Source of the DNA: a bacterium
GTDB taxonomy: Bacteria; UBA9089; CG2-30-40-21; SBAY01
Length of the DNA stretch: 43,919 nt
Assembly (NCBI GenBank): GCA_040757115.1
Contig: JBFLYA010000005.1
Location: forward strand, 1-43,919
Direction: 5' to 3'
Each line of letters begins with the position of its first letter. The first letter of the stretch is position 1. The translations under genes were made by a program, and so were the position numbers. The notes below the pieces were generated by a model. The model had not been told where the DNA came from and ran no database searches. It saw only the letters and a list, made by a program, of their open reading frames with translations. Below, in pieces: positions 3,408 through 43,640 of the stretch.

Positions 3408-3640
3408 AAAGGATAAACCACTTAATCTTAAAAAATTTGATAATTCACTACAAGTAGTTATCCGTCATTTAATTTTAAGTAAAGTTTTGACTAATAACTG
3501 CTATAGTTACAAAAAACTCAACCACGATTTGCGAAGACTTTTTCAAAAGTAAGTCTTTTAAAATCAAGAAGTTCTCATTTGCGAGGTAGCAAATGGATAG
3601 GTTTTTGGATTTAAAAATTGATGGATTTGCGAAAAAATAC

Positions 3641-3669
3641 TTGACAGAGGTGGTAAAGTGGTGTATTAT
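3641..3669 (+). promoter_or_regulatory. Sigma70-like promoter with no downstream plus-strand ORF
   Basis: TTGACA-17 nt-TATTAT. Confidence 0.45.
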
Positions 3670-3718
3670 CTAATAAAAGGTAGGAAGAAGTTAATTTTTT
3701 TAAGATGGCTTTCTGACA

Positions 3719-3850
3719 ATTTAACGATAGAGTTCAGGTGCGGCGGGGAGAATTACCACTAAAGTTTGATAGCCAGATAAAACTTTGAGAGACCACAAAA
3801 CTCTGACCACGGCACAGTCCCCCGCCGTCAACTGCAACGCAGGGTTAGAC
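3719..3850 (-). other. Integron attC-like recombination site (132 bp)
   Basis: Minus strand: R'' GTCTAAC, L'' GTTGCAG-TTGACGGCGGGG ... CCCCGCCGCAC-CTGAAC L', R' GTTAAAT; two unpaired bases in the left arm; lies ~90 bp past the stop of ORF 3939-4514. Confidence 0.7.
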
Positions 3851-3938
3851 AAAAGCTTTGATTCGCTGTCTTTTCCTTTTCCTCTGCCTCACCGAATTAT
3901 TGTGCATTCCACATTCACGGTTTGACCCCCATCTCCCC

Positions 3939-4514
3939 CTAACTTTCTGATAGTCTCTCTATAATTTGAAAAAGCAATTTCCTATCAGTCAAAAATATAG
4001 CAATAAGAGTTATTACCCACAGTATCATAAAATATATTGCCGCAGCTTTCCAGTTGGTTAACTTCCTTTCTAACTTTCTGATAGTCTCTCTATAATTTAA
4101 ACGAATATAATTGATATGTTCATTCATTTCGTCTTCATTCACTTCCTTTTTTGTCCAGGCAATCCAGTCATTTCTTTCTTTTTCTTCCTCTTTCCGCTTT
4201 TTTTCTTCTTCTTTAGCCCGTCTATATTCTTCACGCTTCCGCTCTTGCTTTCGCTCTCGCTCTAGCGTTTGCTCTGCAAGAGTATGAATGTGAACTTCAT
4301 AACCCATTTGCTTCAAAGCCTGAATTCCCTCTAGGGTAATCCGCCAACCCGGTTTTGTCCCAAAGAAGTATTCCTCCACAAGTTTCTCACTCCAATGTTT
4401 AACTAATCTCTCTGCTTTCAATTTCTCAAAATCTGAAGAATAGATTCTCCCTTCTTCTATCAGGAATCCGCTTAATTCTGAATCTATTTCTTCACTTACT
4501 TTTACTTTTTCCAT
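3939..4514 (-). CDS. Hypothetical protein with coiled coil and C-terminal transmembrane helix
   Basis: 191-aa ORF with an E/K/R-rich central helix and hydrophobic AAAIYFMILWVITLIAIFL. Confidence 0.7.
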   Translation of the reverse strand: MEKVKVSEEIDSELSGFLIEEGRIYSSDFEKLKAERLVKHWSEKLVEEYFFGTKPGWRITLEGIQALKQMGYEVHIHTLAEQTLERERKQERKREEYRRAKEEEKKRKEEEKERNDWIAWTKKEVNEDEMNEHINYIRLNYRETIRKLERKLTNWKAAAIYFMILWVITLIAIFLTDRKLLFQIIERLSES

Positions 4515-4744
4515 TTTATTTTCCGCCTTATTTCCCTGCCTGCCTGTTAAAGTTGTTTCAATCCTTGTTTTTAATGGAAGTTGGGTTGTTACTCGTTTTT
4601 TAACAAGAGATTATACAGTTCTGTATATCATTCCATTTGGGATGTTATCCAGAAAACGGATATTACCACATTCATAAACAAAACATCAGCACTATCAGAT
4701 TTGAGATTATGTTAGCCACCCACCGGTACGAAAAACACACCAAA

Positions 4745-5089
4745 CTAATACTCAATCACTGCGGCAATCGCTACGACAATTGATTTCATAACTACTGGGG
4801 AAATGATGCCCAGTTTCTGAACAAATCGTTGAGTATCAACACCACGTAGTTGTAAGGTGTCAACAGCTGATGTCTTTGTTAAGCCGTTTATGCTATCTGG
4901 CATCAGTTTAACATGCCAGACATTTTGTGCGAAGTAATCCTTCCACTCAGTTAGTGGAGCAACCAACCTAATGGGCAACATACCAACGGAATCAGAACTG
5001 ACAACAACAACTGGACGAGTCTTTCGGATTTCCGCACCAATGGTTGGGTCGAGACTTACTAACCAAATCTCACCACGATTAATGCTCAT
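4745..5089 (-). CDS. mazF: Type II toxin, MazF/PemK family endoribonuclease
   Basis: RGEIWLVSLDPTIGAEIRKTRPVVVVSSD; QLRGVDTQRF. Confidence 0.92.
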   Translation of the reverse strand: MSINRGEIWLVSLDPTIGAEIRKTRPVVVVSSDSVGMLPIRLVAPLTEWKDYFAQNVWHVKLMPDSINGLTKTSAVDTLQLRGVDTQRFVQKLGIISPVVMKSIVVAIAAVIEY

Positions 5090-5339
5090 AAATAAAATCT
5101 CCTGCTTGCCATTTTTGACGTTCGTTTGCTGTTTGCTCGTAGTGAGCTACCATCTTCTCAGCTTGTTGTGCCATAAGTTGACGTCGTTCATTCAAAGGAA
5201 GCTGCATAAAATCGATTTGAGATGACACATCTGTTTCTTTATCAGCCAATTCAAGCAACAAACTGTATGCACATTGAAGATTTGTTGTTGGGATTTGTTT
5301 AACTAATTTTTGAATCTTAGAGTAAGTAATCGTTTCCAT
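5079..5339 (-). CDS. Putative antitoxin of the MazF toxin
   Basis: Small ORF overlapping the toxin start; AGGAG RBS upstream. Confidence 0.7.
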   Translation of the reverse strand: METITYSKIQKLVKQIPTTNLQCAYSLLLELADKETDVSSQIDFMQLPLNERRQLMAQQAEKMVAHYEQTANERQKWQAGDFIYEH

Positions 5340-5412
5340 GTTTATTTCTCCTTTCTGCTCTATATCTTATTTAGATTTTCTTACAAATAGGGTTGTTATG
5401 GGCTAACCTTAG

Positions 5413-5590
5413 ATTATCCTGCCTATTGGCAGTTTTTATTTTACTGCATTATAAGTTAGGCTATTTATAGAGTAGCATAAATAAAATATTCTGTCAAGAA
5501 GAATTTTAATATCAAAATTAGAAAATACTGAAAAATAACATCCTAAGTATTATCCTGCCTATTAGCGGTTTTTATTTTACTGCATTATAA
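5413..5590. repeat. 42-bp direct repeat (40/42 identical) at 5413-5454 and 5549-5590
   Basis: ATTATCCTGCCTATTrGCrGTTTTTATTTTACTGCATTATAA occurs twice. Confidence 0.85.
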
Positions 5591-5595
5591 ATTTT

Positions 5596-5786
5596 TTCGA
5601 CCTGTGCAGGTAGAAAATTAAGGAAGCAGATTTTTAATAGTAAGCGGGTGGATTTAGTAAGCGGATTTAACGGATTTAGCGGAAAAAGAAATAAAAAAAA
5701 TCCGCTCAATCCGTTTAATCCGCTTACAATAAAAAATGTAATCTGTTTAATCAATTATCCTTTTATTTCTAACTGCACAGGTGGAA
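5596..5786. mobile_element. MITE-like element with ~21-bp terminal inverted repeats and internal CGGATTTA nonamer inverted arms
   Basis: TTCGACCTGTGCAGGTAGAAA ... TTTCTAACTGCACAGGTGGAA; inner TAAGCGGATTTAACGGATTTAGCGGA / TCCGCTCAATCCGTTTAATCCGCTTA. Confidence 0.7.
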
Positions 5787-5822
5787 ACTTATTTACGGCT
5801 GTGGACTACGGTTGATGGAATG

Positions 5823-6050
5823 TATAGCGGTTATTAACTGGAAGTTTACATAGGATAATACCCATAAATAAGGCATGAGAATAATCGTTCCGTTAGGAAC
5901 ATAATATCGGTAGGAATAGATAGACAAATCAATCAGTTCCGTAGGAACGATATATTGGTAGAAAATTTATGGAAAGCCATTTACCGATATATTGTCCCTA
6001 TGGGACATTATTTGTATTTCTAAGTAAAGTTTTGAATAATAACTGCTATA
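5823..6050. mobile_element. TA-ended MITE carrying three REP-like hairpins; a truncated right end also at 3476-3505
   Basis: TATAGCGGTTATT ... AATAACTGCTATA; internal GTTCCGTTAGGAAC, GTTCCGTAGGAAC, GTCCCTATGGGAC. Confidence 0.75.
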
Positions 6051-6064
6051 ATTTCAGAGACCAT

Positions 6065-6949
6065 TTAATTTTCTTCGTGTCCTTTGTGTTCTTCGTGGTG
6101 AATAGTTATCTCTATTTTACTCCGTGTTCGTAGACCAAAATCGTGGCTAACCCTATCATCTGAAAGCCCAGGCTGATAATGTTCAACAAAGTAACCTGTG
6201 ATTACTTCGTTATCCCCTTCTTCGATAAAAAAGCAAGCAAAACCTACTACTTTGACCATTGAAGGGATAGGTTTAAAAATTTCGACAACCGGTATTTTTA
6301 ATAATTTAGGACATTGTGCTGAGAAATTATTTATACGACAATCACTTTTACAAGCACCAGTAAAAAGGCTGACTAATTCTTCCAATTCATTCTCTTTTAG
6401 TTCACGCAGGTTAAAGATATTACCTACTTTAAGTGTTTTAGAAAATGCAGACCCAAAATCCAGCCCGACTAATTTTTCTTCCAACAAATTCGTTTCTGGC
6501 TGTCTGGCAAGTTTATACAAAAAACCAAAGTTTAACCCCGAAGGTCGAATAATTCCCAGAGAAATAGTTTCTAATTCAGTAATAGGGCAAATCGTTCTTA
6601 AAATCTCTGCCTGTTTTTGGAGAAATAATGTAATTGTTTTCTTACCAACAAGCCAGGCAAAATAAGTATTGATGGATAAGGATTTATTAATGGTTATCTT
6701 ATTTAGGGAGGGACTGATAATTATTTCCTCATCATTTAACAAAATACCATAATTTTTTGCCATTTGTTTTATCTTTTTATTAGTCGCCCGGGGTGTATCG
6801 ATTAAAATAGCCCCTTCTTTAATTATCTCCTCCAAATATCCTTCTACTCTGTTTTTTATCAAATGTAGCCGGATGACATCCGTAATTAATCCGACTAAAA
6901 AAAGACCCAGGATAATGGCAACTATTATTAAAATCTTATTTAACATCAT
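6065..6949 (-). CDS. Membrane-anchored protein with weak Tad/Flp TadG-like features
   Basis: N-terminal TM helix; C-terminal IPVV...VKVVGFACFFIE resembles TadG-type tails. Confidence 0.55.
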   Translation of the reverse strand: MMLNKILIIVAIILGLFLVGLITDVIRLHLIKNRVEGYLEEIIKEGAILIDTPRATNKKIKQMAKNYGILLNDEEIIISPSLNKITINKSLSINTYFAWLVGKKTITLFLQKQAEILRTICPITELETISLGIIRPSGLNFGFLYKLARQPETNLLEEKLVGLDFGSAFSKTLKVGNIFNLRELKENELEELVSLFTGACKSDCRINNFSAQCPKLLKIPVVEIFKPIPSMVKVVGFACFFIEEGDNEVITGYFVEHYQPGLSDDRVSHDFGLRTRSKIEITIHHEEHKGHEEN

Positions 6950-6952
6950 ACC

Positions 6953-7300
6953 TTACTCACCTTCATCTTCCTCAGGTTGAAGCCCATAGGTTACATTTGG
7001 AATTAAAGGTATTTCTTTTTTATCCGAGAGAGATTCAATGTGTTGCGACCTATCTTTAGTTAATACCGCTTGTAATTCTGAGAACTCTTTAGCCAATTTA
7101 TACCCTATTTTGCCTTTTTTCACCAGGGTATCAGGCAATACCCTTCCCTCTTCACACCAGAGTTTAAGTTCCTTTAGCTCTATTGGACCATATTCCTTAT
7201 CGACGAAAATATACCATTTATCCTCAATAACTTCTTTATTATCAAAGGATTTACTACATCCTGAAGAAATTACGATAGAGAGAATAATTAACCATCTCAT
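6953..7300 (-). CDS. Lipoprotein with GYF_2 (DUF4339)-like domain
   Basis: Lipobox ISSGC; WYIFVDKEYGPIELKELKLWCEEGRVLPDTLVKK. Confidence 0.75.
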   Translation of the reverse strand: MRWLIILSIVISSGCSKSFDNKEVIEDKWYIFVDKEYGPIELKELKLWCEEGRVLPDTLVKKGKIGYKLAKEFSELQAVLTKDRSQHIESLSDKKEIPLIPNVTYGLQPEEDEGE

Positions 7301-7345
7301 AATAACCTCCAGAAAAGTAACCAGTAGGCAGTCAAGTTAATAGGA

Positions 7346-7496
7346 CGCAGATTTTCGCAGATTATCAGGATAATAAAAACTAAAATGATACTATAAAGAC
7401 ACAAAGATTAATTACTCGGTAGTGTTAAATAACTAAAAGTTTAATTGTATCCTGGTAACTAAAAAATCTTGAAAATCTGCGTTTATCTGCGTTCCC
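7346..7496. repeat. Inverted-arm element of GGACGCAGATT type; related copy at 41337-41484
   Basis: GGACGCAGATTTTCGCAGATTATCAGGA ... TCTTGAAAATCTGCGTTTATCTGCGTTCC. Confidence 0.7.
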
Positions 7497-7497
7497 A

Positions 7498-9036
7498 TTA
7501 TTCCATTTTAATTGCCTGAATACAGAAATCACAGCCACCAAAATATAAAATCTGATTATGAATTGTCGGCGTTGAACGAAGGTTATTTTTAATGTAATAT
7601 TTTTGCAGGATAGTGCCATCCAGCGAACTTAAGGCAAATAAACATCCTTTATCCTGACCAGATTTGACTCCATAATAAATTATCCCATCTGAGATAACCG
7701 GGGAAGATTCTATTTTAACTCCTAAATTTCGTCTCCATTTCAGTTCAACTTCATTATTATCTTCTTTTAAGCAAATTGCAACACCTTCTCCAGTGCCAAA
7801 GTGGATAAGTTTTTCTCCGTTAAAAGTTACTTGAATTACTGGCGAAGAAAGAATATCAAAATGGCTAATATTTATCTCTGATGTATCATAAGCCCAGGAT
7901 AATTCCTCAGATTGAATATCTACCGCATAGATATAATATTTTCCAGCGGTGAAATATACCTTGTTGGCAAATATAGTTGGTTTGCATCTAATTGGTTCTA
8001 AAGAGCCTGTCCAGGGATATGCCCATTTTAATTCCAATTTTCCTGATCTGAGTATCTTAAGTGCCCTTAATTTACCGTCATTTGAGCCAAAGTAAATAAT
8101 TTCATCTTTAATCAATGGTGATGAAATAATCGAGCCAGAAGTAGAATAATTATCAATTATCTTACCGCTGTCAATATTTATGGCATAAAGTTTTCCCTCC
8201 ACACTGCCTACATAACAAGTATCTTTGAAAATCACTGGAGAAGAATTACACCAGATATAATCTTCTCGACCATAGCCATCGCTAATCAAGGTAGGCGAAA
8301 GCCCTTGCGGAGAACCAGTCATAGTATCTAATCTATAAAGATAGGTAAATCTCTGTGGATTGTTTTCAGCATTAACTACAGTGAAGTAAAGGCAATTATT
8401 ACTTATTACGGGATTAGATTGAATACAACAGCCACCTCGATTAAGTTTATAATTTTCATATTCTACTGCCACGCCATTTTTATCATAGAGGATGCCGGAA
8501 GATGTATCGAAACTCCACAATCTTCTGCCCGTCGTTATATCAAGTGCATACATAAATCCTGAAGTCACTCCGCAATATAAAATATCCTCCTGGATAACAG
8601 GCGAAGAATGAATATGAGACCTGGTATCAAATTCCCATATTTTTTGCATAGGTTGATGATAGGCGACAGCCCGTGTATTTATCTTTTGGTGACTAAAACC
8701 GAATATTACCCCAGAGATAAGCCTTATTTTTTTAGTTAAAAGGATTTCTATCTTCAAATCTTCTGTTTTAATCAAAATATTATCTATCTCAAAACCACTT
8801 TTTTTAATAAAATCATTTACAATCAAATTTACCCTGGAAATTCCTTCTAAAAGATAAAAAGCACCTTTAGAGGCTGACTGCTCACAGATTGTTATCATTC
8901 CTGATTTCAATTGATAGATTCTTTTTAAATCAATATTCAGGAGTATAATTTCCATCAAGAAAAATAAAATTAAAGATGATAGAGATAGTGCCTGGATAAA
9001 AATATTATCTTTTTTTGCCAACGATATATTCTTCAC
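7498..9036 (-). CDS. Membrane-anchored PQQ-like beta-propeller protein with possible Tad-like N-terminus
   Basis: Repeated W.F...I.SSP.I....Y.G...G.LYA motifs; N-terminal TM helix. Confidence 0.8.
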   Translation of the reverse strand: MKNISLAKKDNIFIQALSLSSLILFFLMEIILLNIDLKRIYQLKSGMITICEQSASKGAFYLLEGISRVNLIVNDFIKKSGFEIDNILIKTEDLKIEILLTKKIRLISGVIFGFSHQKINTRAVAYHQPMQKIWEFDTRSHIHSSPVIQEDILYCGVTSGFMYALDITTGRRLWSFDTSSGILYDKNGVAVEYENYKLNRGGCCIQSNPVISNNCLYFTVVNAENNPQRFTYLYRLDTMTGSPQGLSPTLISDGYGREDYIWCNSSPVIFKDTCYVGSVEGKLYAINIDSGKIIDNYSTSGSIISSPLIKDEIIYFGSNDGKLRALKILRSGKLELKWAYPWTGSLEPIRCKPTIFANKVYFTAGKYYIYAVDIQSEELSWAYDTSEINISHFDILSSPVIQVTFNGEKLIHFGTGEGVAICLKEDNNEVELKWRRNLGVKIESSPVISDGIIYYGVKSGQDKGCLFALSSLDGTILQKYYIKNNLRSTPTIHNQILYFGGCDFCIQAIKME

Positions 9037-26322: not shown

Positions 26323-26710
26323 GGAAGTAGAAAGTAAAGAAAACATCACTCCTCACGCCTATCTCCTTACCTCCCACCTTCTATCTCCTACCACTATTTT
26401 CATCCTCCTTGTGTCCACCCTGTGGACATGTCCGTTTCTCCTGAAAATAGTTAATTAGAGATTAGAGAATTAGTGAATTAGAACCTGCACTCTTGCTAAT
26501 CTCTAATCTCCAATCTCTAATCTCTATGCCCGATTTTCATCCTCCTTTGTGCCCACTCCCTGTGGGCATGAGCGTTTCTTCTGAAAATAGTTTTTTCACG
26601 CAAAGGTAATTTTTCCCTTATTTCCCTTTGCGTTCTTTGCGTGCTTGGCGTGAAACTTCCTTTCCCCTGAAAATATCCGCAGATTTCGCCGATTACACAG
26701 ATTTTTCTCC
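26323..26710. repeat. Array of ATTTTCA...TGAAAAT hairpin sites (26396-26448, 26533-26588, half-site 26667-26674) separated by distinct repeat-arm cargos
   Basis: Unit ATTTTCATCCTCCTTTGTGCCCACTCCCTGTGGGCATGAGCGTTTCT(C/T)CTGAAAAT. Confidence 0.85.
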
Positions 26711-31519: not shown

Positions 31520-31790
31520 CTCCTGAAAATAGGAAGTAGAGAGTAGAGAGTAGAGAGTAGAAAGTAAAGAAAACATCACTCCCCACGCTTATCTCCTCAT
31601 CTCCCACCTTCTATCTCCTACCACTATTTTCATCCTCCTTTGTGCCCACTCCCTGTGGGCATGAGCGTTCTCCTGAAAATAGGCTGAAGGCGAAAGGCTT
31701 AAGGCTGAAGATTTTTTATCCTATGTCCTTCAGCCCTCAGCCTATTTTCATCGCTCTTTCTTCCACAGGTTAATGTTTGTTTCCCCAAAT
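31520..31790. repeat. Second ATTTTCA...TGAAAAT site array (half-site 31520-31530, full 31626-31680, degenerate ~31744-31790)
   Basis: Same unit as at 26533; first cargo 31531-31625 is homologous to 26323-26395. Confidence 0.85.
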
Positions 31791-34916: not shown

Positions 34917-35005
34917 AATTGATTAATTATACATTAAATATTTTTACCTGTCAACTTTTTTTCTTCTTGACTTTTTATAAAATTTATGATAATGTAGTAA
35001 TCGAA

Positions 35006-38000
35006 ATGGTTATTGATTTAGAACAAAAGGATAGTTTAAGATTTATACTTAAACAGAAATCCAGAGATTATTATTTTAAATTCTTTTCTATTCTTAATGA
35101 ACTTAATAAGATTCAGACAGGCGGAGATGTAGTCTATCATGCTCAACATGGAGTTAAACATTGTGAAATCGTAGAACAAAACCTAAATGACCTACTCCCG
35201 GCTACCCTCAAGCGTAAAATGAATCATAAGGAGATATTTTGTATGCTATTGGCGGTTTGGTTTCATGATGTTGGAGAAATATTTGATGAAAAAGGTAAAG
35301 GATATACGCATATCAGAAGTCATGATTATATTTATAAACATTATGAAGATTGGAAACTTGATGAATCTAATGCACATTTCATTACACAAATTTTAAAGGA
35401 ATCCGCAAAAGAAACAGAAGAAAAAATAATATTAGAAGATGACCGAACTTTAGTTAGGTTTTTAGCTTATTTACTTCGGCTATCAGATAAATTAGATATT
35501 GGAAATAGCAGTGTGCCTCGCGAACTTCTTACCCCCTGGAAAAGGTCATTTAAAGACCACACCGTGCTATCTCTTTTAAAGGAAAGATTTGATGTTGATT
35601 TGAAAATTGATTCAGAACACTGGATAATTTGTGCCTATTTAAACCCAAAATCAGAACTACTTGCTAACACAGAACTTATAAATGATATTTATGATAAGAT
35701 ACAAATAAGATTAAATAAAGACCTTGATTCTTTCAAAGAAGTTTTTTATCAAAATGGCCTGGGCTATCAAAAAATTAAACTCATTCTTTCATCAAAAATT
35801 AAAGAAAAGGAAGTTTTGGTGAAAAACAAACCCCTCCAAATTTCCCCTTACAAATTCCTTCATTATTATGAAACTTACGATAAAGATTTATTTTGGGGAC
35901 GAGAAGAGGATATTTCTAAATTTGTAGGTCATATTTTGATTAATAAATTAGTTGTTATCTATGGAGATGCCTTGATAGGAAAGACATCTTTGATTAAAGC
36001 CGGAATTATTCCAAAATTATCCGAAGGGAATATTGCTATTTACATCAATTGTAACCGTGACCCGTTGAATTTGATTAAAGAAGAGGTTGAAAAAGAATTC
36101 AAACGGGAGAGAATCCGAAGCTTCAAATTAGATAAATCATTGTCATTAGTAGATTTTTTCAAAAATATCGATTTACCTTATTCTATTATTATCTTTATTG
36201 ACCATTTTGAGAATTTCTTTAAACAGGTAGGTAAAGAGGCACAGGAAGAATTTATAAATGAAATAGCAACCTGCACTTATGCCGATAAACCTCTAGTTAA
36301 ATTTATATTTGCCATACAAAAAGATCTTTTTGTTCATTTAGGCAGTTTTAAGGATAGATTACCGGAGCTATTTCAGAACGCCTTTGAATTAACAAAACTT
36401 ACTGAATCTCAGGCATTAGAGGCAATTGAATGTCCAGCCAAATTGTTTAATATTGAATATGCCAGAGAACTTTTAGAGGCATTAATCTGGGATATTAGAG
36501 ATGAGCAAGATTTAATCCAGCCAATTCATATTCAAATCGTATGTAATAAATTAGTCCAAACCCTGAATCCTGAGTTGTTAAGGGATATATTACCCCAAAC
36601 AATAAGTTATGAATGGTATGATGACCTGGGTGGAGTTCAAGGGATTTTATCAGATTACCTTGAAGATACATTAAGAAAAATGAACGAGCTATCTGTGGAT
36701 GAAAAAGAGCAGGCAAAAGGTATTTTGAAGGTAATGGTTACTTCTTTTGACTCACATCCAGAAATGAATATCCAGCAAATCTGCTCTTTTATTAAAATTG
36801 AAGAAGATAAATTAAATATGATATTAGATTGTTTAGTAAATTATTCCCTACTGCGAAAAGTAAAAAAGGATACCTATGAATTAATTTCCAATTATTTAAT
36901 TAATAGTATTACTAAAAAGTGGCTAACTCGAAAAGATATAGAATTACGGCAGATTATTGAAAATATCAATAAGGCATTAGATGATTGGCGGGCACATCAT
37001 TGGCGAATGGATATTAACTTATTGAGTAAGGCATATCTATATCGAGAAGATTTACCTGCATCAGAAGAAACATTAGAACTTTTACTGCGTAGTTCTCTGG
37101 AACACAATTTCCCGGCGTGGTTCTGGATTCGTAAGATTGAACCTGACGAACTCAAGAAAGTGCTTGTTGATGCTATTAAAACAGCAGATAGTAATGGGAT
37201 AAAGAGAATTATTGATATTTTAGACAAAGATGGCATTTTAGCCTTAGACCATCTTATTCTTAGATTAAATGACCCGGTAACAGAGGTAAGAAAAGCCGTT
37301 ATAGAGGCGTTAGGTTGTCTGAAGGACCCAAGAACAATAGACTATCTTTTGCAAAGATTAAGTGATTCAGATTTAGATGTTCGAGATGGGACGATAAAAG
37401 CCTTATGTAATTTTGGTAGTCCAAGGATATTAGAGATATTTATTTCTCAATTAGAGAATTCAGATTGGCGAGTAAGAAAGGCGGCCGCAGATGGTTTAGG
37501 GATTTTAAAAGCATCTAAATCGTTGGAATTATTATTTACAAAAATCAATGACCCGGACTCTGAGGTTAGAAAATCAGTGGTGACGGCTCTGGGTAAACTG
37601 GGTAATCTCAAAGCCCAAACACCACTTATTCGTCGATTGAAGGATTCTCACGCGGAGGTAAGAGAGGCGGCGGCTAAAGCACTTGGGAATCTAAGTAGTG
37701 TGTCTGCGGTTGATGACCTTTTATTATGTTTTAATGATAAGGTTTGGCGAGTAAGAGAAGCCGCGGCTATTGCCTTAGGTAAATTAAAGGATGAAAAGGC
37801 ATTAGAGCCTTTATTAGAAATGGCGAATGACCCGGATACCGATGTTCGTAAGGCAGTTGCTGAGGCACTCGGTAATTTACAGACACCACGAACGATGCAA
37901 ATCCTGTTTAATATGCTTGCGGAATCTGAATGGTGGAAAAAAGAAATAGCCACTATTGCCCTTGGTAAATCAAAAGATACAAAGGCGTTAGAGCTTTTTC

Positions 38001-38398
38001 TGGAAGGATTAGATGACCCTGATTGGCGAGTTAGAGTGACAATGGCTAATGGATTAAAATTACTAAGTATAACTGATACAAAAATAGAAGATGCTATAAT
38101 TGAAAGACTTCGTGACCCACATGAAGAAGTTCGAAAAATAGCTATTATTGCCTTAGAAAACTTAGGCACAGAAAAGGCTATCACACCAATTATATCCTGT
38201 CTTAATGATTCTTATGAACCTGTCCGAATAGCCTGCGTTCAAACGCTTGGGAGTATTGGCAATTTAGATGTCTTAGAACCTTTGCTGAATGGAATCAATG
38301 ATAGCTCTCCAGAAGTTAAAAATACCTGCCTGGTAGCATTACAAAAAATTGATGAAAAATTCTATCGCAAAAATATTTTGGATAGTAGTGAGGTGTGA
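35006..38398 (+). CDS. HD-domain + nSTAND1-like NTPase + HEAT-repeat protein (start probably ATG 35006)
   Basis: HGVKH...WFHDVG...LRLSDKLD; PYKFL...LFWGRE...YGDALIGKTSLIKAG...FIDHFE; about a dozen L.D....VR..A..ALG repeats. Confidence 0.85.
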   Translation: MVIDLEQKDSLRFILKQKSRDYYFKFFSILNELNKIQTGGDVVYHAQHGVKHCEIVEQNLNDLLPATLKRKMNHKEIFCMLLAVWFHDVGEIFDEKGKGYTHIRSHDYIYKHYEDWKLDESNAHFITQILKESAKETEEKIILEDDRTLVRFLAYLLRLSDKLDIGNSSVPRELLTPWKRSFKDHTVLSLLKERFDVDLKIDSEHWIICAYLNPKSELLANTELINDIYDKIQIRLNKDLDSFKEVFYQNGLGYQKIKLILSSKIKEKEVLVKNKPLQISPYKFLHYYETYDKDLFWGREEDISKFVGHILINKLVVIYGDALIGKTSLIKAGIIPKLSEGNIAIYINCNRDPLNLIKEEVEKEFKRERIRSFKLDKSLSLVDFFKNIDLPYSIIIFIDHFENFFKQVGKEAQEEFINEIATCTYADKPLVKFIFAIQKDLFVHLGSFKDRLPELFQNAFELTKLTESQALEAIECPAKLFNIEYARELLEALIWDIRDEQDLIQPIHIQIVCNKLVQTLNPELLRDILPQTISYEWYDDLGGVQGILSDYLEDTLRKMNELSVDEKEQAKGILKVMVTSFDSHPEMNIQQICSFIKIEEDKLNMILDCLVNYSLLRKVKKDTYELISNYLINSITKKWLTRKDIELRQIIENINKALDDWRAHHWRMDINLLSKAYLYREDLPASEETLELLLRSSLEHNFPAWFWIRKIEPDELKKVLVDAIKTADSNGIKRIIDILDKDGILALDHLILRLNDPVTEVRKAVIEALGCLKDPRTIDYLLQRLSDSDLDVRDGTIKALCNFGSPRILEIFISQLENSDWRVRKAAADGLGILKASKSLELLFTKINDPDSEVRKSVVTALGKLGNLKAQTPLIRRLKDSHAEVREAAAKALGNLSSVSAVDDLLLCFNDKVWRVREAAAIALGKLKDEKALEPLLEMANDPDTDVRKAVAEALGNLQTPRTMQILFNMLAESEWWKKEIATIALGKSKDTKALELFLEGLDDPDWRVRVTMANGLKLLSITDTKIEDAIIERLRDPHEEVRKIAIIALENLGTEKAITPIISCLNDSYEPVRIACVQTLGSIGNLDVLEPLLNGINDSSPEVKNTCLVALQKIDEKFYRKNILDSSEV

Positions 38399-38503
38399 AA
38401 TTAAACATTTTCCAGCAATTCTTTAGCCATCTGAAGATGTAAATAAGGGAAAAATGGAAAAAGTGGGGCAGATTGTCCCACTTAAAAAGGAGGAAAAAAA
38501 TTT

Positions 38504-41215
38504 ATGATAGAATTACCAAAAGAAAAATATACTGGTAAAATTGGTGAAGTCGTTATTGGCAAAGATTTAAAGGTTGGCGGCGAAAATACCTTTCCTTTTT
38601 ATACCTTCGAAGGGGATTTGCCAAATGAACCCAGAATCGCATTGGAAGTCTATGACATCGAGCCAAAAGACTGGCCACAGGCTTGCCTTGAGCCATTTAA
38701 AGAGGTGGTTTCTGACCCGGTTGCCTGGGCAAAAAGATGCGTAGAATACGGGGCGGATATGATTTGTGTTCAATTGATTGGCACTGACCCAACCGCTGAG
38801 AATAAATCCGCGGAAGAAGCCGCAGAACTTTGTAAAAAAATCGCCGAGGCAGTGAATATTCCTATCCTTGTCTGGGGAAGCGGGAAAATAGAAAAGGATG
38901 CAGAGGTATTGAAAAAGGTCGCTGATGCCACTCAAGGTAAAAATCTGGTTTTAGCCCCGGTTCAGGAAAATAATTATAAAACAATCGGTGCGGTCGCCAT
39001 TGGTTATAAAAATAAAATCTCTGCCTCTGCTCCGATGGATGTGAATTTATCCAAACAACTCAATATCCTTCTTTCAAATCTTGGTGTTGCGGATGACCAG
39101 ATTATCATTGACCCCACTGCCGCTTCACTCGGATATGGAATTGAATATGTCTATTCAATTATCGAGCGAGCTAAACAGGCCGCTCTTACCCAAAATGATG
39201 TAAAATTGCAAATGCCCATTGTGGTTAATCTTGGCAAAGAGGCATGGAAGGTAAAAGAAGTAAAAATACCCGAATCTTATGAGACAAAACTGGGCAATAT
39301 TGGAGATGCCAGAGAAAGAGGTATCCTCTGGGAAGCCATCTCGGCTATGGGTTTGCTAATCGCCGGGGCAGATATTATTATCATCCGGCATCCAGAGACT
39401 CTAAAATTAGTTCGCAAGATTACAAATAAATTATTGGGTAAGGAAATAGAAAAAACTGCTGTGGAAAAACCAAAAGAAGAAATTAAACCCACGCCAGAAA
39501 TACCAAAACCTGCACTCCCAACAGATGTGTCTGAAGTGATTTTAAAACTTACGCAAGAGATAGAAATCCTGAAGAAACGATTAGACGAACATAAACCAGC
39601 TACGGTTAAGATTATTATTGAAGGTCCGGCAGAGGTCATAATCGAAAAAGTGGGTGAAGAAAAACCAACCGTTCCCTTTGTTGAGATGCCTGTAAAAAGA
39701 AAATCAGTCATTTCTCTTAAAGAAGTGATTATCGATGGGGTAGTTGAAAAATTTAGCTATGACTACGAGGCACGAGTTGAGGGACAAAAGGTCTCCTGCA
39801 AATTTGGAACAACAGGTGTTTGTTGTCGGCTCTGTGCTATGGGACCCTGCCGAATCTCACCAAAAACCGATAAAGGCTTATGCGGGGCAACTCCAGATAC
39901 GATTGCGGCAAGAAATCTTATCCGAATGATTGCTGTTGGCGCCTCATTATTTACTGATTATACTCGTTCTGCAGTAAAAAGAGTAGAATCAGAAGAGATA
40001 AAAACTTTTGCAGAAGAATTTGGCAGACATTCCGGAGAACCAGGATTTCTTAAATCTGTCCCGAAAAAAATATACAATATCTGGCAAAAAATGGATATTC
40101 TTCCCCGCGGCATCGACCGTGAAATTGTTGAATTGATGCATCGAACCCATATGGGTGTTGACCAGGATTTTAATAATCTCTTGCAGTGTGGTTTGCGAGT
40201 TGCCCTCTCCTCTGGTCTGGGAAGTACATTTATCGGCTCACAGGTTAAAGAGGCATTATCCCCACCAAAACAATTATCCACATTTTCACTTAATTTTATA
40301 GAAAAAGATGCCTTCAATATTATTGTGCCTGTGGAGTCACTCGACGCCTTTTATCAAGCCGCTGAAGAAACTGAGATAAAAACCCTTGCCAGACAATTGG
40401 GCATTCCAAAGATAAAAATTATAAATTTAGAAGATGTCATCAGCCAGGAAATGGCAATGATGACGGGCGCGATTGATGTCATTGTGGCTGATGAAACAAC
40501 ACCAATTTCCGCATTACTCATTGCCTCCTGCTACCATACCCGCGCATTTACACTAACTTCAATAGATATTGCCGGCGTAAAGAAGATGGATAATGCCAGT
40601 TCTATCTTAAAAAAGGCATTAGCCAACATCCAGAATCGCGGGGCAATGAACATCACGGAAAATGAACTGGAAATTACCTCAAAACTCCCGACTAATACAG
40701 ACAAAATAAAGGGAATAGCGATTGTTTTAAACTGCAAAGGAGACTATACGGAAACGATTAAGGAGCTTATTACCAATGATATTCTCGTTTTGCATGCGGG
40801 ATGTGGGAGTTTGGAATTGGCTAAAAACGGTTTGTTCAATAAGTCTGCTGTTCAGTTTGCCGGGAAAAATCTTGCCGCCTTTTGTGAGCAAGAGAATATT
40901 TCACCGTGCATTTATGTAGGCACCTGTATGGACATATCAAAGGTGATAGTGTCAATGATGTCTTTGGAGAATATTTTAGCAATCATCCCGGAATGGATAG
41001 GTGAAAAGGCGATTGCCCAGGCATTTTTTATGCTTGGTTGTGGACTACCAGTTATTCTGGGCAAGGATTTCTGGGTAAGTGGGACTAAAGAATTAGTTAA
41101 TCTCCTTTACAAAGATAACCCACTTGGGACAAGATTTATTTATAAAGAAGATAACATAGCCCAGGAAACATTAAATCTTATAAACCAGGAAACATTAAAT
41201 CTTATAAAAATGTAA
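38504..41215 (+). CDS. acsD: Fusion of corrinoid Fe-S protein small subunit (AcsD/CdhD) with a degenerate CooS/CODH-like domain
   Basis: N-terminal ~310 aa: VGGENTFPFY.FEG, DVNLSKQLN, LGYGIEY, GADIIIIRHP; Pro/Glu linker; then CKFG..GVCCRLCAMGPCRI...GLCGA, PRGIDRE...MHRTHMG, PEW..EKA. Confidence 0.85.
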   Translation: MIELPKEKYTGKIGEVVIGKDLKVGGENTFPFYTFEGDLPNEPRIALEVYDIEPKDWPQACLEPFKEVVSDPVAWAKRCVEYGADMICVQLIGTDPTAENKSAEEAAELCKKIAEAVNIPILVWGSGKIEKDAEVLKKVADATQGKNLVLAPVQENNYKTIGAVAIGYKNKISASAPMDVNLSKQLNILLSNLGVADDQIIIDPTAASLGYGIEYVYSIIERAKQAALTQNDVKLQMPIVVNLGKEAWKVKEVKIPESYETKLGNIGDARERGILWEAISAMGLLIAGADIIIIRHPETLKLVRKITNKLLGKEIEKTAVEKPKEEIKPTPEIPKPALPTDVSEVILKLTQEIEILKKRLDEHKPATVKIIIEGPAEVIIEKVGEEKPTVPFVEMPVKRKSVISLKEVIIDGVVEKFSYDYEARVEGQKVSCKFGTTGVCCRLCAMGPCRISPKTDKGLCGATPDTIAARNLIRMIAVGASLFTDYTRSAVKRVESEEIKTFAEEFGRHSGEPGFLKSVPKKIYNIWQKMDILPRGIDREIVELMHRTHMGVDQDFNNLLQCGLRVALSSGLGSTFIGSQVKEALSPPKQLSTFSLNFIEKDAFNIIVPVESLDAFYQAAEETEIKTLARQLGIPKIKIINLEDVISQEMAMMTGAIDVIVADETTPISALLIASCYHTRAFTLTSIDIAGVKKMDNASSILKKALANIQNRGAMNITENELEITSKLPTNTDKIKGIAIVLNCKGDYTETIKELITNDILVLHAGCGSLELAKNGLFNKSAVQFAGKNLAAFCEQENISPCIYVGTCMDISKVIVSMMSLENILAIIPEWIGEKAIAQAFFMLGCGLPVILGKDFWVSGTKELVNLLYKDNPLGTRFIYKEDNIAQETLNLINQETLNLIKM

Positions 41216-41640
41216 GCGTTCAGGAATCAGCCATCAGTTGTCAGCATTTAGCCATCTTTTAGCTAAAAAAGCGAACTGATTACAGGAGAAACTGGGCATG
41301 TCCCAGGAGTGGACACAAACGACGATGAAAATTAATGGGACGCAGATTTACAGGATTTACAAGATTTTAAAGAAAAACTACTAAGGCACTCTAAAAACAT
41401 CAAGAAACACTAATGGAATAACTATAGAAATACAATAATAAAAAATTAATTTTAATCCTGTTCATCTGCGAAAATCTGCGTCCCAATTTACATTTTCAGG
41501 AGAAACGCTCATGCCCACAGGAAGTGGGCACAAAGAAAGATGAAAAATGGGTTTGAGGGTTTAATGGTTCAGGTGAAATCAGGTTGAAGCCTGCGGCTAC
41601 CAGCCTTCCCGAGTCCCGAACCCCGAGTCCCGATTTTCAG
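41212..41640. repeat. IS66-like left end followed by a third ATTTTCA/TGAAAAT array in opposite orientation (~41279-41332, 41492-41547, half-site 41633-41640)
   Basis: GTAAGCGTTCAG at 41212; ATTTTCAGGAGAAACGCTCATGCCCACAGGAAGTGGGCACAAAGAAAGATGAAAA. Confidence 0.8.
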
Positions 41641-41672
41641 GTAAACATTTAAACTGATTGGAGGTAAAAATA

Positions 41673-43640
41673 GTGGTTGTAACAACAGAAAAAGAAAAAA
41701 AAGTAGAAAAAAAGATTGATGAGTTAACCGTAGATAAAGCATCGATGGAAATGCTACAAAAAGCTAGAACGGCTAACATTGAGACCGTGTGGGATAGACA
41801 CGAGAAGATGAGTCCGAGGTGTAAATTTGGAGAAGGGGGAATATGTTGTCGTGAATGCGGAAAAGGTCCCTGTCGAATTACGCCTAAGGCACCACAGGGT
41901 GTTTGTGGTGCAGATGACGGTTTGATTGCCGCAAGAAATCTGGCTAAAATGACCGTGGGTGGCTCTGCCGCTCACTCAGACCACGGTCGCGCTGTTGCTG
42001 AAATATTCCTCGCCGCGGCTAAAGGGGAAGCCCCTGGCTACCAGATTAAAGATGAAATAAGACTTCATCAGGTCGCAAAATTATTTGGGATAAACACCGT
42101 AGAAAAGACAAATCAGGAAATTGCCATTGAAGTTGGCGAACTTGCCTTATCAGAATTTGGTAAGCAAGATGACGAATTAACATTCATTAAACGAGCTCCG
42201 GAAAAAAGACAGGAAATCTGGAAAAAACTGGGGATTGTCCCAGGAGGTATAGACCGCGAGGTAGTTTATCTAATGCATCAGATTCATACCGGCGTAAGTG
42301 ATGATGTTGAGGATATTTCTTTAGCCAATTTCAGGTGTAGTCTGGCAGATGGTTGGGGAGGGTCAATGATTGCGACTGAACTTCAAGATGTCCTTTTTGG
42401 TGCCCCTGTCCCCGTGAGGTCACGGGCCAACCTGGGTGTGCTTAAAGAAGATGAGGTAAATATCATTGTTCATGGACATGAACCGATATTATCTGAACTG
42501 GTCGTTGCCGTTTCTTCAGAGCCAGAAATGATTCAATTAGCAAAAGAGCAAGGAGCAAAAGGTATAAATATTGCAGGAATGTGTTGCACGGCAAATGAAA
42601 TCCTTATGCGACACGGCATTCTGCTTGCAGGTAATTTCTTACAACAAGAACTGGCAATTATGACTGGCGCGGTGGAGGCGATGATTGTGGATGTCCAATG
42701 TATTATGCAATCCCTGACTCCGGTTGCCTCCTGTTTTCATACCAAAATAATTACCACCTCAAAAAAGGCAAAAATTCCAGGTGCAATCCATATCGAGTTT
42801 GATGAACACGATGCCATAAATACCGCAAAAGAGATTGTTAAACGGGCTGTCTTGAATTTCAAAAATCGCAAAAAAGATGTCGTTATCCCAAAACAATCTA
42901 TGGAATTAATTGCCGGCTTTACCCATGAATATGTCAATTATATGCTTGGTGGAAGGTTTCGGGCTTCTTACCGCCCACTTAATGACAATGTTATCAATGG
43001 TCGGATAAAAGGTGTGGTTGGAATTGTGGGATGTAATAATCCAAAGGTGAAATATGATGCGGTGCATCTTGAAGTTACCAGAGAACTTATTGCCAATGAT
43101 ATTTTAGTTGTGCAGACAGGCTGTGCGGCGATAGCCTGTGCTAAGGAAGGATTATTATTACCAGAGGCCGCGGTGAAATATGCGGGTAAGGGATTAGCTG
43201 AGGTCTGTGAGGCAGTTGGTATGCCACCTGTGCTCCATTGTGGTTCCTGTGTGGATAATTCCCGCATCCTTATTGCCTGCACCGAAATGGTTCGTGAAGG
43301 TGGACTTGGGAATGATATTTCAGAATTACCTGTAGTTGGAATCGCACCAGAATGGATGTCCGAAAAGGCAATCGCCATTGGGCATTATGTTGTTGCCTCT
43401 GGAATTTTTACCATATTTGGCGTCACCTATCCTGTCATTGGCAGTGAATCAGCAAAAAAGATGGTTTTTGAGAAATATGGCGAGCTTGTCGATGGCAAAT
43501 TTGCTTTAGCCGTTACTCCATCAGAGATTGTCAATCTCACGATTGACCACATCAATAAAAAACGCAAGGCACTTGGAATTGATAAACCCAAAGAAAGAAT
43601 ATTGTATGATATGGAGATGAGACGAGAGCTTAAGTTTTAG
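41673..43640 (+). CDS. cooS: Anaerobic Ni-Fe carbon monoxide dehydrogenase, AcsA/CooS type (start probably GTG 41673)
   Basis: CKFG..GICCRECGKGPC...CG, HSDH, HGHEP, GMCC, DVQC, GCNN, TGC, GSCVD, SEKA all present; RBS GGAGGT. Confidence 0.96.
   Translation: MVVTTEKEKKVEKKIDELTVDKASMEMLQKARTANIETVWDRHEKMSPRCKFGEGGICCRECGKGPCRITPKAPQGVCGADDGLIAARNLAKMTVGGSAAHSDHGRAVAEIFLAAAKGEAPGYQIKDEIRLHQVAKLFGINTVEKTNQEIAIEVGELALSEFGKQDDELTFIKRAPEKRQEIWKKLGIVPGGIDREVVYLMHQIHTGVSDDVEDISLANFRCSLADGWGGSMIATELQDVLFGAPVPVRSRANLGVLKEDEVNIIVHGHEPILSELVVAVSSEPEMIQLAKEQGAKGINIAGMCCTANEILMRHGILLAGNFLQQELAIMTGAVEAMIVDVQCIMQSLTPVASCFHTKIITTSKKAKIPGAIHIEFDEHDAINTAKEIVKRAVLNFKNRKKDVVIPKQSMELIAGFTHEYVNYMLGGRFRASYRPLNDNVINGRIKGVVGIVGCNNPKVKYDAVHLEVTRELIANDILVVQTGCAAIACAKEGLLLPEAAVKYAGKGLAEVCEAVGMPPVLHCGSCVDNSRILIACTEMVREGGLGNDISELPVVGIAPEWMSEKAIAIGHYVVASGIFTIFGVTYPVIGSESAKKMVFEKYGELVDGKFALAVTPSEIVNLTIDHINKKRKALGIDKPKERILYDMEMRRELKF

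Follow-up and report, generated by a model that had tools for sequence, protein, structure and literature searches.

How does the methyl-carrying corrinoid iron-sulfur protein (CFeSP) meet CO dehydrogenase/acetyl-CoA synthase (CODH/ACS)? For the Wood-Ljungdahl pathway this is a live question: bacteria are thought to keep the CFeSP separate, and archaea build the megadalton acetyl-CoA decarbonylase/synthase complex (ACDS) around it. The question is raised in an unusual form by contig JBFLYA010000005.1 of an uncultured bacterium, on which a single gene joins AcsD, the small subunit of the CFeSP, to a shortened CODH-like domain (referred to below as pseudo-CooS), followed by a separate cooS gene. 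The window, i.e., the stretch that was analysed, is the whole 43,919-bp contig (C408) of the metagenome-assembled genome (MAG) G000 (4.3 Mb, 462 contigs, 99.87% complete), and the public runs that match it are groundwater metagenomes. For comparison, the fusion protein served as the query against all 25 species genomes of the phylum in our collection, and the most important loci were inspected. Among these genomes, G001 belongs to another species of the same genus (g1), whereas g5 and g13 are sister lineages. The parts of the fusion gene and its surroundings are as follows.

38504..41215, + strand: acsD-pseudo-cooS fusion gene, 903 aa plus stop, ATG start (open reading frame (ORF) list, Pfam, NCBIfam)
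38489..38493, + strand: Shine-Dalgarno sequence GGAGG, 10 nt 5' of the fusion ATG (read from the sequence)
38504..39439, + strand: AcsD (CFeSP small subunit) domain, residues 1-312 (Pfam CdhD, NF003376, match to 2h9a_B, predicted local distance difference test (pLDDT))
39440..39763, + strand: linker rich in Glu, Lys, and Pro, predicted to be flexible, residues 313-420 (pLDDT, composition)
39527-39589, + strand: predicted helix inside the linker, residues 342-362 (structure model)
39764..41212, + strand: pseudo-CooS, shortened CODH-fold domain, residues 421-903 (Prismane, AlphaFold2, Foldseek, TIGR01702)
41162..41209, + strand: 24-nt tandem duplication that adds eight residues (QETLNLIN) at the C-terminus and is not present in G001 (codon comparison)
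41216..41672, no strand: 457-nt spacer that separates cooS from the fusion gene and consists of repeats dispersed in the genome (Logan depth, blastn)
41673..43640, + strand: canonical cooS with all cluster ligands (TIGR01702, 641.8 bits against a cut-off of 478; ligand table)

An earlier note on this DNA, written from the letters alone, had described the 903-aa ORF as a full AcsD domain joined through a Pro/Glu-rich linker to a shortened CooS-like domain, next to an intact cooS. This description was borne out by the ORF list, by Pfam and NCBIfam, and by the structural match, and the neighbouring cooS turned out to be complete in its ligand set. The hidden Markov model scan that the note had proposed recovered both domains of the fusion protein, namely Pfam CdhD (PF03599) at residues 18-304 (E 7.5e-44, 150.5 bits against a cut-off of 24.8) and Pfam Prismane (PF03063) at residues 504-883 (E 3.6e-61). 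The AcsD part passes the cut-off of NCBIfam NF003376 for the ACDS delta subfamily (391.8 bits, cut-off 280) and stays below those of two narrower models (NF040759, 326.3 < 430; TIGR00381, 219.8 < 252.9). Residues 3-307 of the 310 residues of the solved C. hydrogenoformans CFeSP small subunit (2h9a_B) are colinear with residues 2-309 of the query (E 4.9e-92), and pLDDT values of the full-length model are mostly above 90 over residues 6-312. A CdhD search of the organism's own genome matched only the fusion gene and AcsC, which is encoded on contig C398. The fusion gene is thus the sole AcsD found in this 99.87% complete genome, and therefore every CFeSP molecule must carry the dead CODH domain.

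The linker was described too narrowly in the earlier note: Glu (18) and Pro (11) are indeed abundant among its 108 residues (313-420), but so are Lys (17), Ile (14), and Val (13). The full-length model consists of two confident domains with a predicted TM-score (pTM) of 0.56 for the whole chain, and pLDDT drops below 50 at residues 317-339 and 367-431. The linker is accordingly predicted to be disordered, a long flexible tether that would leave the two domains without a fixed mutual position. A separate internal start at Met395 was considered as well, but there is no GGAGG ahead of it as judged by eye, and hence it is unsupported.

The C-terminal domain has the fold of a CODH. An AlphaFold2 model of residues 422-903, calculated from a 63-row alignment, reached a pLDDT of 85.1 and a pTM of 0.86, and Foldseek returned 103 Protein Data Bank (PDB) matches for it at E <= 0.001. 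The best of these is 6b6w_A, the D. vulgaris CODH (E 3.5e-36, query-normalised TM-score (TMq) 0.82), and the top matches are Ni,Fe-CODHs. No hybrid cluster protein (HCP) is named in the titles of the best 50 of the 103 matches, a dedicated HCP ligand alignment not having been made. In a BLASTP comparison, the fused domain shows 29% identity to the neighbouring CooS (E 1e-70) with 114 gap columns, and it scores 218.5 bits with the CODH equivalog TIGR01702, far below the cut-off which the neighbouring CooS passes. Ligands were read from a 99-sequence MAFFT alignment onto which the motifs of the neighbouring CooS had been mapped, and from closer alignment views. The ligand numbers used here are presumably those of C. 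hydrogenoformans CODH-II; three of them agree with the PDB titles of the CODH-II mutants H93A, C295D, and K563A. The motifs are located as follows.

39797..39886, + strand: D/B-cluster Cys motif CKFG..GVCCRLCAMGPC..LCG, residues 432-461, complete (alignment, sequence)
39950..39961, + strand: FTDY (residues 483-486) in place of HSDH, catalytic His93 replaced by Phe (alignments)
40319..40339, + strand: IIVPVES (residues 606-612) at the site of the lost HGHEP, His261 deleted (alignments)
40490..40501, + strand: DETT (residues 663-666) in place of DVQC, Cys333 replaced by Thr (alignments)
40727..40933, + strand: three kept C-cluster Cys, Cys744 = 446, Cys767 = 476, Cys808 = 526 (alignments)
40988..41011, + strand: PEWIGEKA (residues 829-836), with Lys835 as the equivalent of Lys563 (alignments)

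All motifs that the earlier note had listed as kept were found at their places, and the losses of HSDH, HGHEP, and DVQC that it had listed are confirmed by the 99-sequence alignment, in which Cys295 also falls in a deletion. The N-terminal Cys motif is a CODH type II D/B motif in which all six Cys are retained (two for the D-cluster and four for the B-cluster; Cys432, 440, 441, 444, 449, and 460). The kept C-cluster Cys lie in the motifs LNC (742-744), AGC (765-767), and GTCMD (806-810). Pseudo-CooS is shorter than CooS by about 150 residues, through three deletions: one of about 35-45 residues after the His93 site, one of 16 residues that removes the loop with Cys294/295 downstream of IIVPVES, and one of about 18 residues ahead of the Cys446 position. 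Overall, three of the six C-cluster ligands are kept (Cys446, Cys476, and Cys526) and three are lost (His261, Cys295, and Cys333), and of the acid-base pair Lys563 is kept and His93 is lost. Since three of the six ligands and His93 are missing, the fused domain, as judged from these alignments, cannot act as a normal CO dehydrogenase; it cannot build the Ni-Fe C-cluster or oxidise CO. Its kept sites suggest that pseudo-CooS still bears Fe-S clusters.

Such a gene might arise from a misassembly or a lost stop codon at the junction, or it might be a relic, i.e., an inactivated cooS duplicate that drifts neutrally. The MAG is fragmented into its 462 contigs and rich in repeats, which leaves room for an artefact. 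However, a contig from the Logan collection (run X1, 7,391 nt, depth 283) spans positions 38000-41256 with 0 differences and no gap, so that a second assembler yields exactly this ORF. As this best DNA match possibly stems from the source sample, the Logan contig represents a second assembler but not second data. Independent support for the gene being real is provided by the second species-level genome, G001, in which the fusion also runs without interruption (895 aa, 98% identity) and has the same neighbours. Comparison of the two genomes also speaks against a relic. The CODH-like domain shows a dN/dS of 0.175 (22 synonymous and 14 non-synonymous changes), compared to 0.224 for the neighbouring CooS (29 and 23), 0.121 for the AcsD domain (7 and 3), and 0.332 for the linker (5 and 6), all values being derived from small change counts in a single species pair. 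Thus, the dead domain is constrained like the live CooS and is under purifying selection rather than decaying, contrary to the neutral decay which the earlier note had named among the things that would refute it. The confident predicted fold, the invariance of nine Cys in a 13-sequence alignment (see below), and the occurrence of pseudo-CooS, fused or separate, in 10 of the 25 phylum genomes point in the same direction. We regard an artefact or relic as very improbable and as already largely refuted.

The search of the other genomes, which had likewise been proposed in the earlier note, found the fusion again in G001 and the paralog family as a separate gene in 8 of the 23 other genomes. The genomes of the phylum were grouped by how AcsD and the CODH-like proteins occur in them.

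AcsD fused to pseudo-CooS: G000, G001
Separate pseudo-CooS gene, 581-629 codons from stop to stop: six of six g5 genomes (G006-G011), two of three g13 genomes (G022, G024)
AcsD fused to intact CooS, about 1,010 aa: G013, G018, G021
AcsD fused to a CODH of the CdhA-like kind that bears a ferredoxin insert, 1,131 aa: G005
AcsD short (316-348 aa) and without a paralog match: G002-G004, G012, G014, G015, G017, G019
No match: G016, G020

The g13 genome without a paralog match (G023) is 78% complete. A '1150-aa open frame' in G002 that looked like a further fusion was discarded, since it is a read-through count with 12 stops inside. In G006, G008, G009, and G010, where the three genes lie together on one contig, the gene order is acsD - paralog - cooS, and in G009 acsB comes after these. 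The seven g5/g13 paralogs in the ligand table (G007 was left out) all show the ligand pattern of the window domain apart from Arg at the Lys563 position, and the 16-residue deletion over the Cys294/295 loop has identical boundaries in g1 and g5/g13. An alignment (A1) of 13 rows combines both g1 domains with seven paralogs from g5/g13 and four deviant proteins from databases; in it, the nine cluster Cys are invariant, and the rows are 25-32% identical to the window domain, the near-identical G001 copy excluded.

The retention of three C-site Cys, in g1 together with Lys563, could also mean that the domain is a repurposed catalyst, whose altered C-site holds a different cluster and performs chemistry other than that of CO/CO2 beside the CFeSP, in the manner of CooS-V or HCP. 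Deviant CODH paralogs whose clusters are of a new type or whose activity is new are known, and CooS-V (PDB 7b7q; PMC9311411) and clade B RfCODH (PMC13592312) indicate that CODH scaffolds can be repurposed. Here, however, two ligand-bearing loops are deleted and His93 is lost, Lys563 is replaced by Arg in all seven g5/g13 paralogs examined, and the family alignment contains no conserved replacement Cys or His in a domain that is about 150 residues shorter. A catalytic role of this kind therefore appears improbable.

In g5 and g13, AcsD and the paralog share a further feature. C-terminal tails of the PDDEXK_3 (GxxExxY) family are present on seven of seven AcsD proteins and on seven of seven paralogs. 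The tailed genes of G009 are located at L020:2252-3664 and L020:4179-5936, and likewise tailed genes occur in G006, G008, G010, G011, and G022-G024. The AcsD tail of G009 is 40% identical to the paralog tail over 63 residues (E 8e-12). The fused g1 proteins are without a PDDEXK_3 tail, as are the AcsD proteins (316-348 aa) of the paralog-less genomes, and no similarity was found between the g1 linker and the tail of the G009 AcsD. By eye, the acidic residue usual in the (D/E)xK motif of PDDEXK_3 seems to be replaced in the tails (IGCK / CIGK). The nuclease fold of the tails may therefore serve as a docking module. A PDB search with the tails found no relative, and a complex prediction for the AcsD tail and the paralog tail of G009 scored 0.56, compared to 0.53 for the control. 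AcsD and the paralog are thus either joined, as in g1, or tail-matched, as in g5/g13, and we infer that fusion and paired tails are alternative means of keeping this pair of proteins in contact. Taken together, fusion, gene order, and matching tails support the conclusion that pseudo-CooS is evolutionarily tied to AcsD.

With regard to the origin of the paralog, a 65-row tree (this and all further trees are quick trees) unites the g1 and g5/g13 dead domains in a single clade of 14 rows, which has an SH-like approximate likelihood ratio (SH-aLRT) support of 96. This clade also holds the deviant database proteins P0120, P0122, P0134, and P0140 and is sister to the clade of ACS-linked canonical CooS. 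In an approximately unbiased (AU) test, constraining g1 and g5/g13 to a single clade improved on the free tree by 3.06 lnL (p-AU 0.64). A single old paralog behind g1 and g5/g13 is favoured, though not settled, by these sequences, because the deletion boundaries are shared.

Fusions of AcsD to other CODHs are more common in the databases. Twelve public clusters (90% identity) comprise AcsD fused to full-length CooS (P0002, P0003, P0123, P0270-P0275, and P0278-P0280), and all ligands are present in the four fused intact CooS that were checked (P0002, P0003, P0123, and the protein of G013). In G013, the fusion is the only AcsD match and the only CooS match of the genome. The fusion of G005 (L027:890-4282) carries a 4Fe-4S ferredoxin insert and all C-cluster ligands, but its first D-cluster Cys is replaced by Ala; no match to the reactivase RACo was found in this genome. 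These proteins show that AcsD-CODH fusion is a recurring theme, which fits a tethering role. The dead version of the fusion is represented by one cluster with two sequences in public proteins. An exhaustive HMMER scan of 1.84 billion representatives yielded none closer than 37-40% identity among the top full-length matches, and a search of the ESM Atlas returned only generic Prismane clusters. No relative came up in a related-locus search that used the single domain as the query. When alignment A1 was used instead, 80 loci from many phyla matched at 28-33% identity, with ligand status not checked, among which there is no locus from this phylum and no added paralog context. In NCBI, the g13 paralog is named 'GxxExxY protein' and P0001, which is 98% identical to the fusion described here, is named 'subunit delta'.

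Besides CODHs, other proteins are found joined to AcsD or CooS. In 25 clusters (P0029-P0053; 868-921 aa, some named from Desulfobulbus) MetF (PF02219) is fused to AcsD, which is another wiring of AcsD to a pathway partner. A further 25 AcsD clusters (P0004-P0028; 500-560 aa) come from Desulfobacterota-type MAGs, and P0004, P0005, and P0022 of these have long C-terminal tails rich in Lys, Ala, and Glu in which a short segment, terminal or nearly so, is conserved. The representatives P0144, P0162, P0197, and P0191 are further CODH fusions, namely CooS-AcsB (1,375 aa), PilZ-CooS (844 and 861 aa), and DUF166-CooS (878 aa).

What pseudo-CooS might do is suggested by the sites that it has kept. In CODHs, the electron path leads from the C-cluster of one subunit to the partner's B-cluster and from there to the shared D-cluster, and pseudo-CooS, by its sequence, keeps exactly the sites needed for a CODH-style dimer and for this electron path. 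We therefore propose, with a probability of roughly 45%, that pseudo-CooS is a docking and relay pseudo-subunit which pairs with CooS and leashes the CFeSP to CODH/ACS. Dimerisation, choice of partner, and tethering are deduced parts of this proposal. Pseudo-CooS would dimerise in the manner of CODHs through a shared D-cluster, and its favoured partner would be the catalytic CooS encoded next to it. In the heterodimer, the B-cluster of pseudo-CooS would serve the C-cluster of CooS, and heterodimer and tether together would hold the methyl carrier on the CODH/ACS particle. By a covalent link, a bacterium would thus have an equivalent of the archaeal ACDS, where the CoFeSP that contains CdhD acts as the scaffold for CODH and ACS.

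Several points weigh against this proposal. The g5/g13 paralogs are unfused and carry Arg for Lys563, as mentioned above. The ligand assignments depend on alignments that span gapped regions. In a 1:1 heterodimer of CooS and pseudo-CooS, each CODH dimer would have half as many C-clusters. With regard to common ancestry, a 34-row tree leaves the g1 and g5/g13 paralogs unresolved on long branches, and in the AU test a clade of g1 and nine canonical CooS was 7.67 lnL worse (p-AU 0.27) and thus not rejected. Co-transcription of the fusion gene and cooS is uncertain, because 457 nt of repeats separate the two, and no other Wood-Ljungdahl gene adjoins the fusion gene or cooS in g1.

A more specific version would have pseudo-CooS form an obligate asymmetric dimer with CooS that carries the CFeSP on a leash, and would have the sister lineages build the same assembly non-covalently through paired, catalytically degenerate PDDEXK_3 docking tails. 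Such a dimer would have one live C-cluster, fed via the B-cluster of the dead subunit and the shared D-cluster. In this full form the idea is speculative and we consider it unlikely. If it were true, the asymmetric dimer would make a bacterial acetyl-CoA machine in a single particle, with a pseudoenzyme as one of its parts, and the paired docking tails would be a new use of a nuclease fold.

It could also be that the fusion protein does not need CooS at all. A homodimer, (AcsD-pseudoCooS)2, formed via its own D-cluster would be a self-contained electron-input module, in which electrons would run from ferredoxin to the D-cluster, the B-cluster, a residual cluster at the C-site, and finally to the [4Fe-4S] cluster and cobalt of the CFeSP, so that Co(I) is kept or restored. 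The D/B-cluster Cys and the three C-site Cys are invariant in the paralog family, the coupling seen for the paralog is with AcsD and not demonstrably with CooS, and the repeat-filled spacer separates the fusion gene from cooS in g1, all of which would suit such a module. Against it stands the dedicated reactivase RACo (PF14574), which is encoded in 23 of the 25 phylum genomes including G000; with RACo present, pseudo-CooS is no substitute for the ATP-dependent reactivase, and its role as a RACo replacement was rejected. Furthermore, the fusion of AcsD to catalytic CooS elsewhere suggests that closeness to CODH is what is selected. We thus hold an electron-input module to be rather unlikely, for its homodimeric build and for the proposed electron route alike.

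Alternatively, the partner of pseudo-CooS might be AcsB. Long bacterial AcsB binds CODH via its N-terminal domain, and the AcsB of this genome, encoded on contig C292, is of the long bacterial type (open frame of 737 aa). As the CODH fold is kept, pseudo-CooS might act as a docking decoy that binds this N-terminal domain instead of CooS and brings the CFeSP to the A-cluster. However, the CO tunnel and the ACS contact lie around the C-cluster in CODH/ACS, and it is the former C-cluster that the deletions of pseudo-CooS surround. We consider this docking to AcsB doubtful, at long odds.

Compared with known systems, the AcsD part corresponds to the CFeSP small subunit AcsD/CdhD (C. hydrogenoformans 2h9a_B; M. 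thermoacetica 4djd_D), which is matched over the whole subunit and has its partner AcsC in the genome. In contrast to a stand-alone AcsD of about 310 aa, the window protein adds at its C-terminal side a 110-residue linker and a 480-residue CODH-fold domain. Pseudo-CooS resembles canonical CooS/AcsA (D. vulgaris 6b6w, CODH-II, M. thermoacetica 1mjg) in its fold (TMq 0.78-0.82), the type II D-cluster motif, the B-cluster with all four Cys, the three C-terminal Cys of the C-cluster, and Lys563. It differs from them by the absence of His93, His261, Cys295, and Cys333, by its shorter length, by its fusion to AcsD, and by its score below the TIGR01702 cut-off. The fusions of AcsD to intact CooS, some of which occur in the same phylum, show the same order of AcsD, linker, and CODH, whereas in the window protein the CODH domain is dead and lies beside a separate catalytic CooS.

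CODHs with incomplete motifs have been described before. According to Inoue 2019 (PMC6344411), CODH groups A-4 and A-6 have incomplete C-cluster motifs, are located with ACS genes, and nearly always retain the three C-terminal C-cluster Cys. The same paper states that sequences with deletions in cluster motifs were excluded from the survey, so that the pseudo-CooS family would have been filtered out. Like the window domain, CooS-V, RfCODH, and groups A-4/A-6 are CODH scaffolds with incomplete C-cluster or acid-base motifs; they are stand-alone proteins that lose one or two ligands by substitution, whereas the window family deletes ligand loops and is AcsD-fused or tail-matched. For the archaeal ACDS, a preprint (Zimmer et al. 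2026; PMC13370988) reports a CdhD-bearing CoFeSP scaffold that tethers CODH and ACS via disordered termini, non-covalently and through the N-terminal region of CdhD. In comparison to what is described there, the link in the window is covalent, C-terminal, and bacterial, and leads to a dead CODH paralog; the likeness would be one of function only.

In the literature searched, which did not extend to Adam 2018 or to Supplementary Table 1 of Inoue 2019 (a list of fused Ni-CODHs that may contain such fusions), neither a fusion of AcsD with a CODH of any kind nor a pseudo-subunit of the CFeSP derived from CODH was found described, in agreement with the statement of the earlier note that it knew of no such architecture. 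In PMC12743542, the word 'fused' occurs only for a GC column. The fusions of AcsD to intact CooS are already present in public databases, where they have gone unremarked. The domains and the pathway are known; the architecture is conserved and, as far as the searches go, new, and the domain has a likely pseudoenzyme role. A CODH/ACS specialist would be surprised by it. In one small phylum, there are three genetic ways to attach AcsD to a CODH fold, namely fusion to a live CooS or CdhA-like protein, fusion to a dead paralog, and matching tails. If pseudo-CooS pairs with CooS as proposed, it would be, to our knowledge, the first CODH pseudoenzyme kept for its Fe-S clusters and surface. The fusion protein would then be a natural, expressible construct for trapping the assembly of CFeSP and CODH/ACS, and the reading would flag a protein family misnamed by automated annotation.

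The surroundings of the fusion gene are shaped by repeats. In the spacer ahead of cooS, the Logan word depth is 3,498-8,584, compared to 283 for the gene, and there are up to 75 blastn copies in the genome. The spacer contains small hairpin-forming units that recur at window positions 26397-26588 and 31627-31680. For cooS itself, the ORF list gives a TTG start at 41658; the GTG at 41673, which follows a GGAGG at 41660-41664 and gives a protein of 655 aa, is likelier, since the TTG overlaps its own GGAGG. At the contig end (43641-43919) lies a repeat that blastn finds in more than 200 copies across the genome and whose Logan depth is about 120,910, which explains the assembly break after cooS as well as the location of acsB and acsC on short contigs of 2.9 kb and 1.0 kb. 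The gene 5' of the fusion gene (34919-38398) encodes a protein of 1,159 aa with HD-CE, nSTAND1 NTPase, and HEAT repeats; it has the same upstream position in G001 and no relation to the pathway. The remaining pathway is present in G000, with FTHFS and a protein that binds pterin besides AcsB, AcsC, and RACo. A third CODH-family gene of this genome is located at G000:C51:4805-6463 (L002) and comprises 619 codons, with a Prismane score of 278.7 bits. In a 5-sequence alignment, its His93 is replaced by Ser and the Ni ligand Cys526 by Met, which makes it a second deviant CODH paralog.

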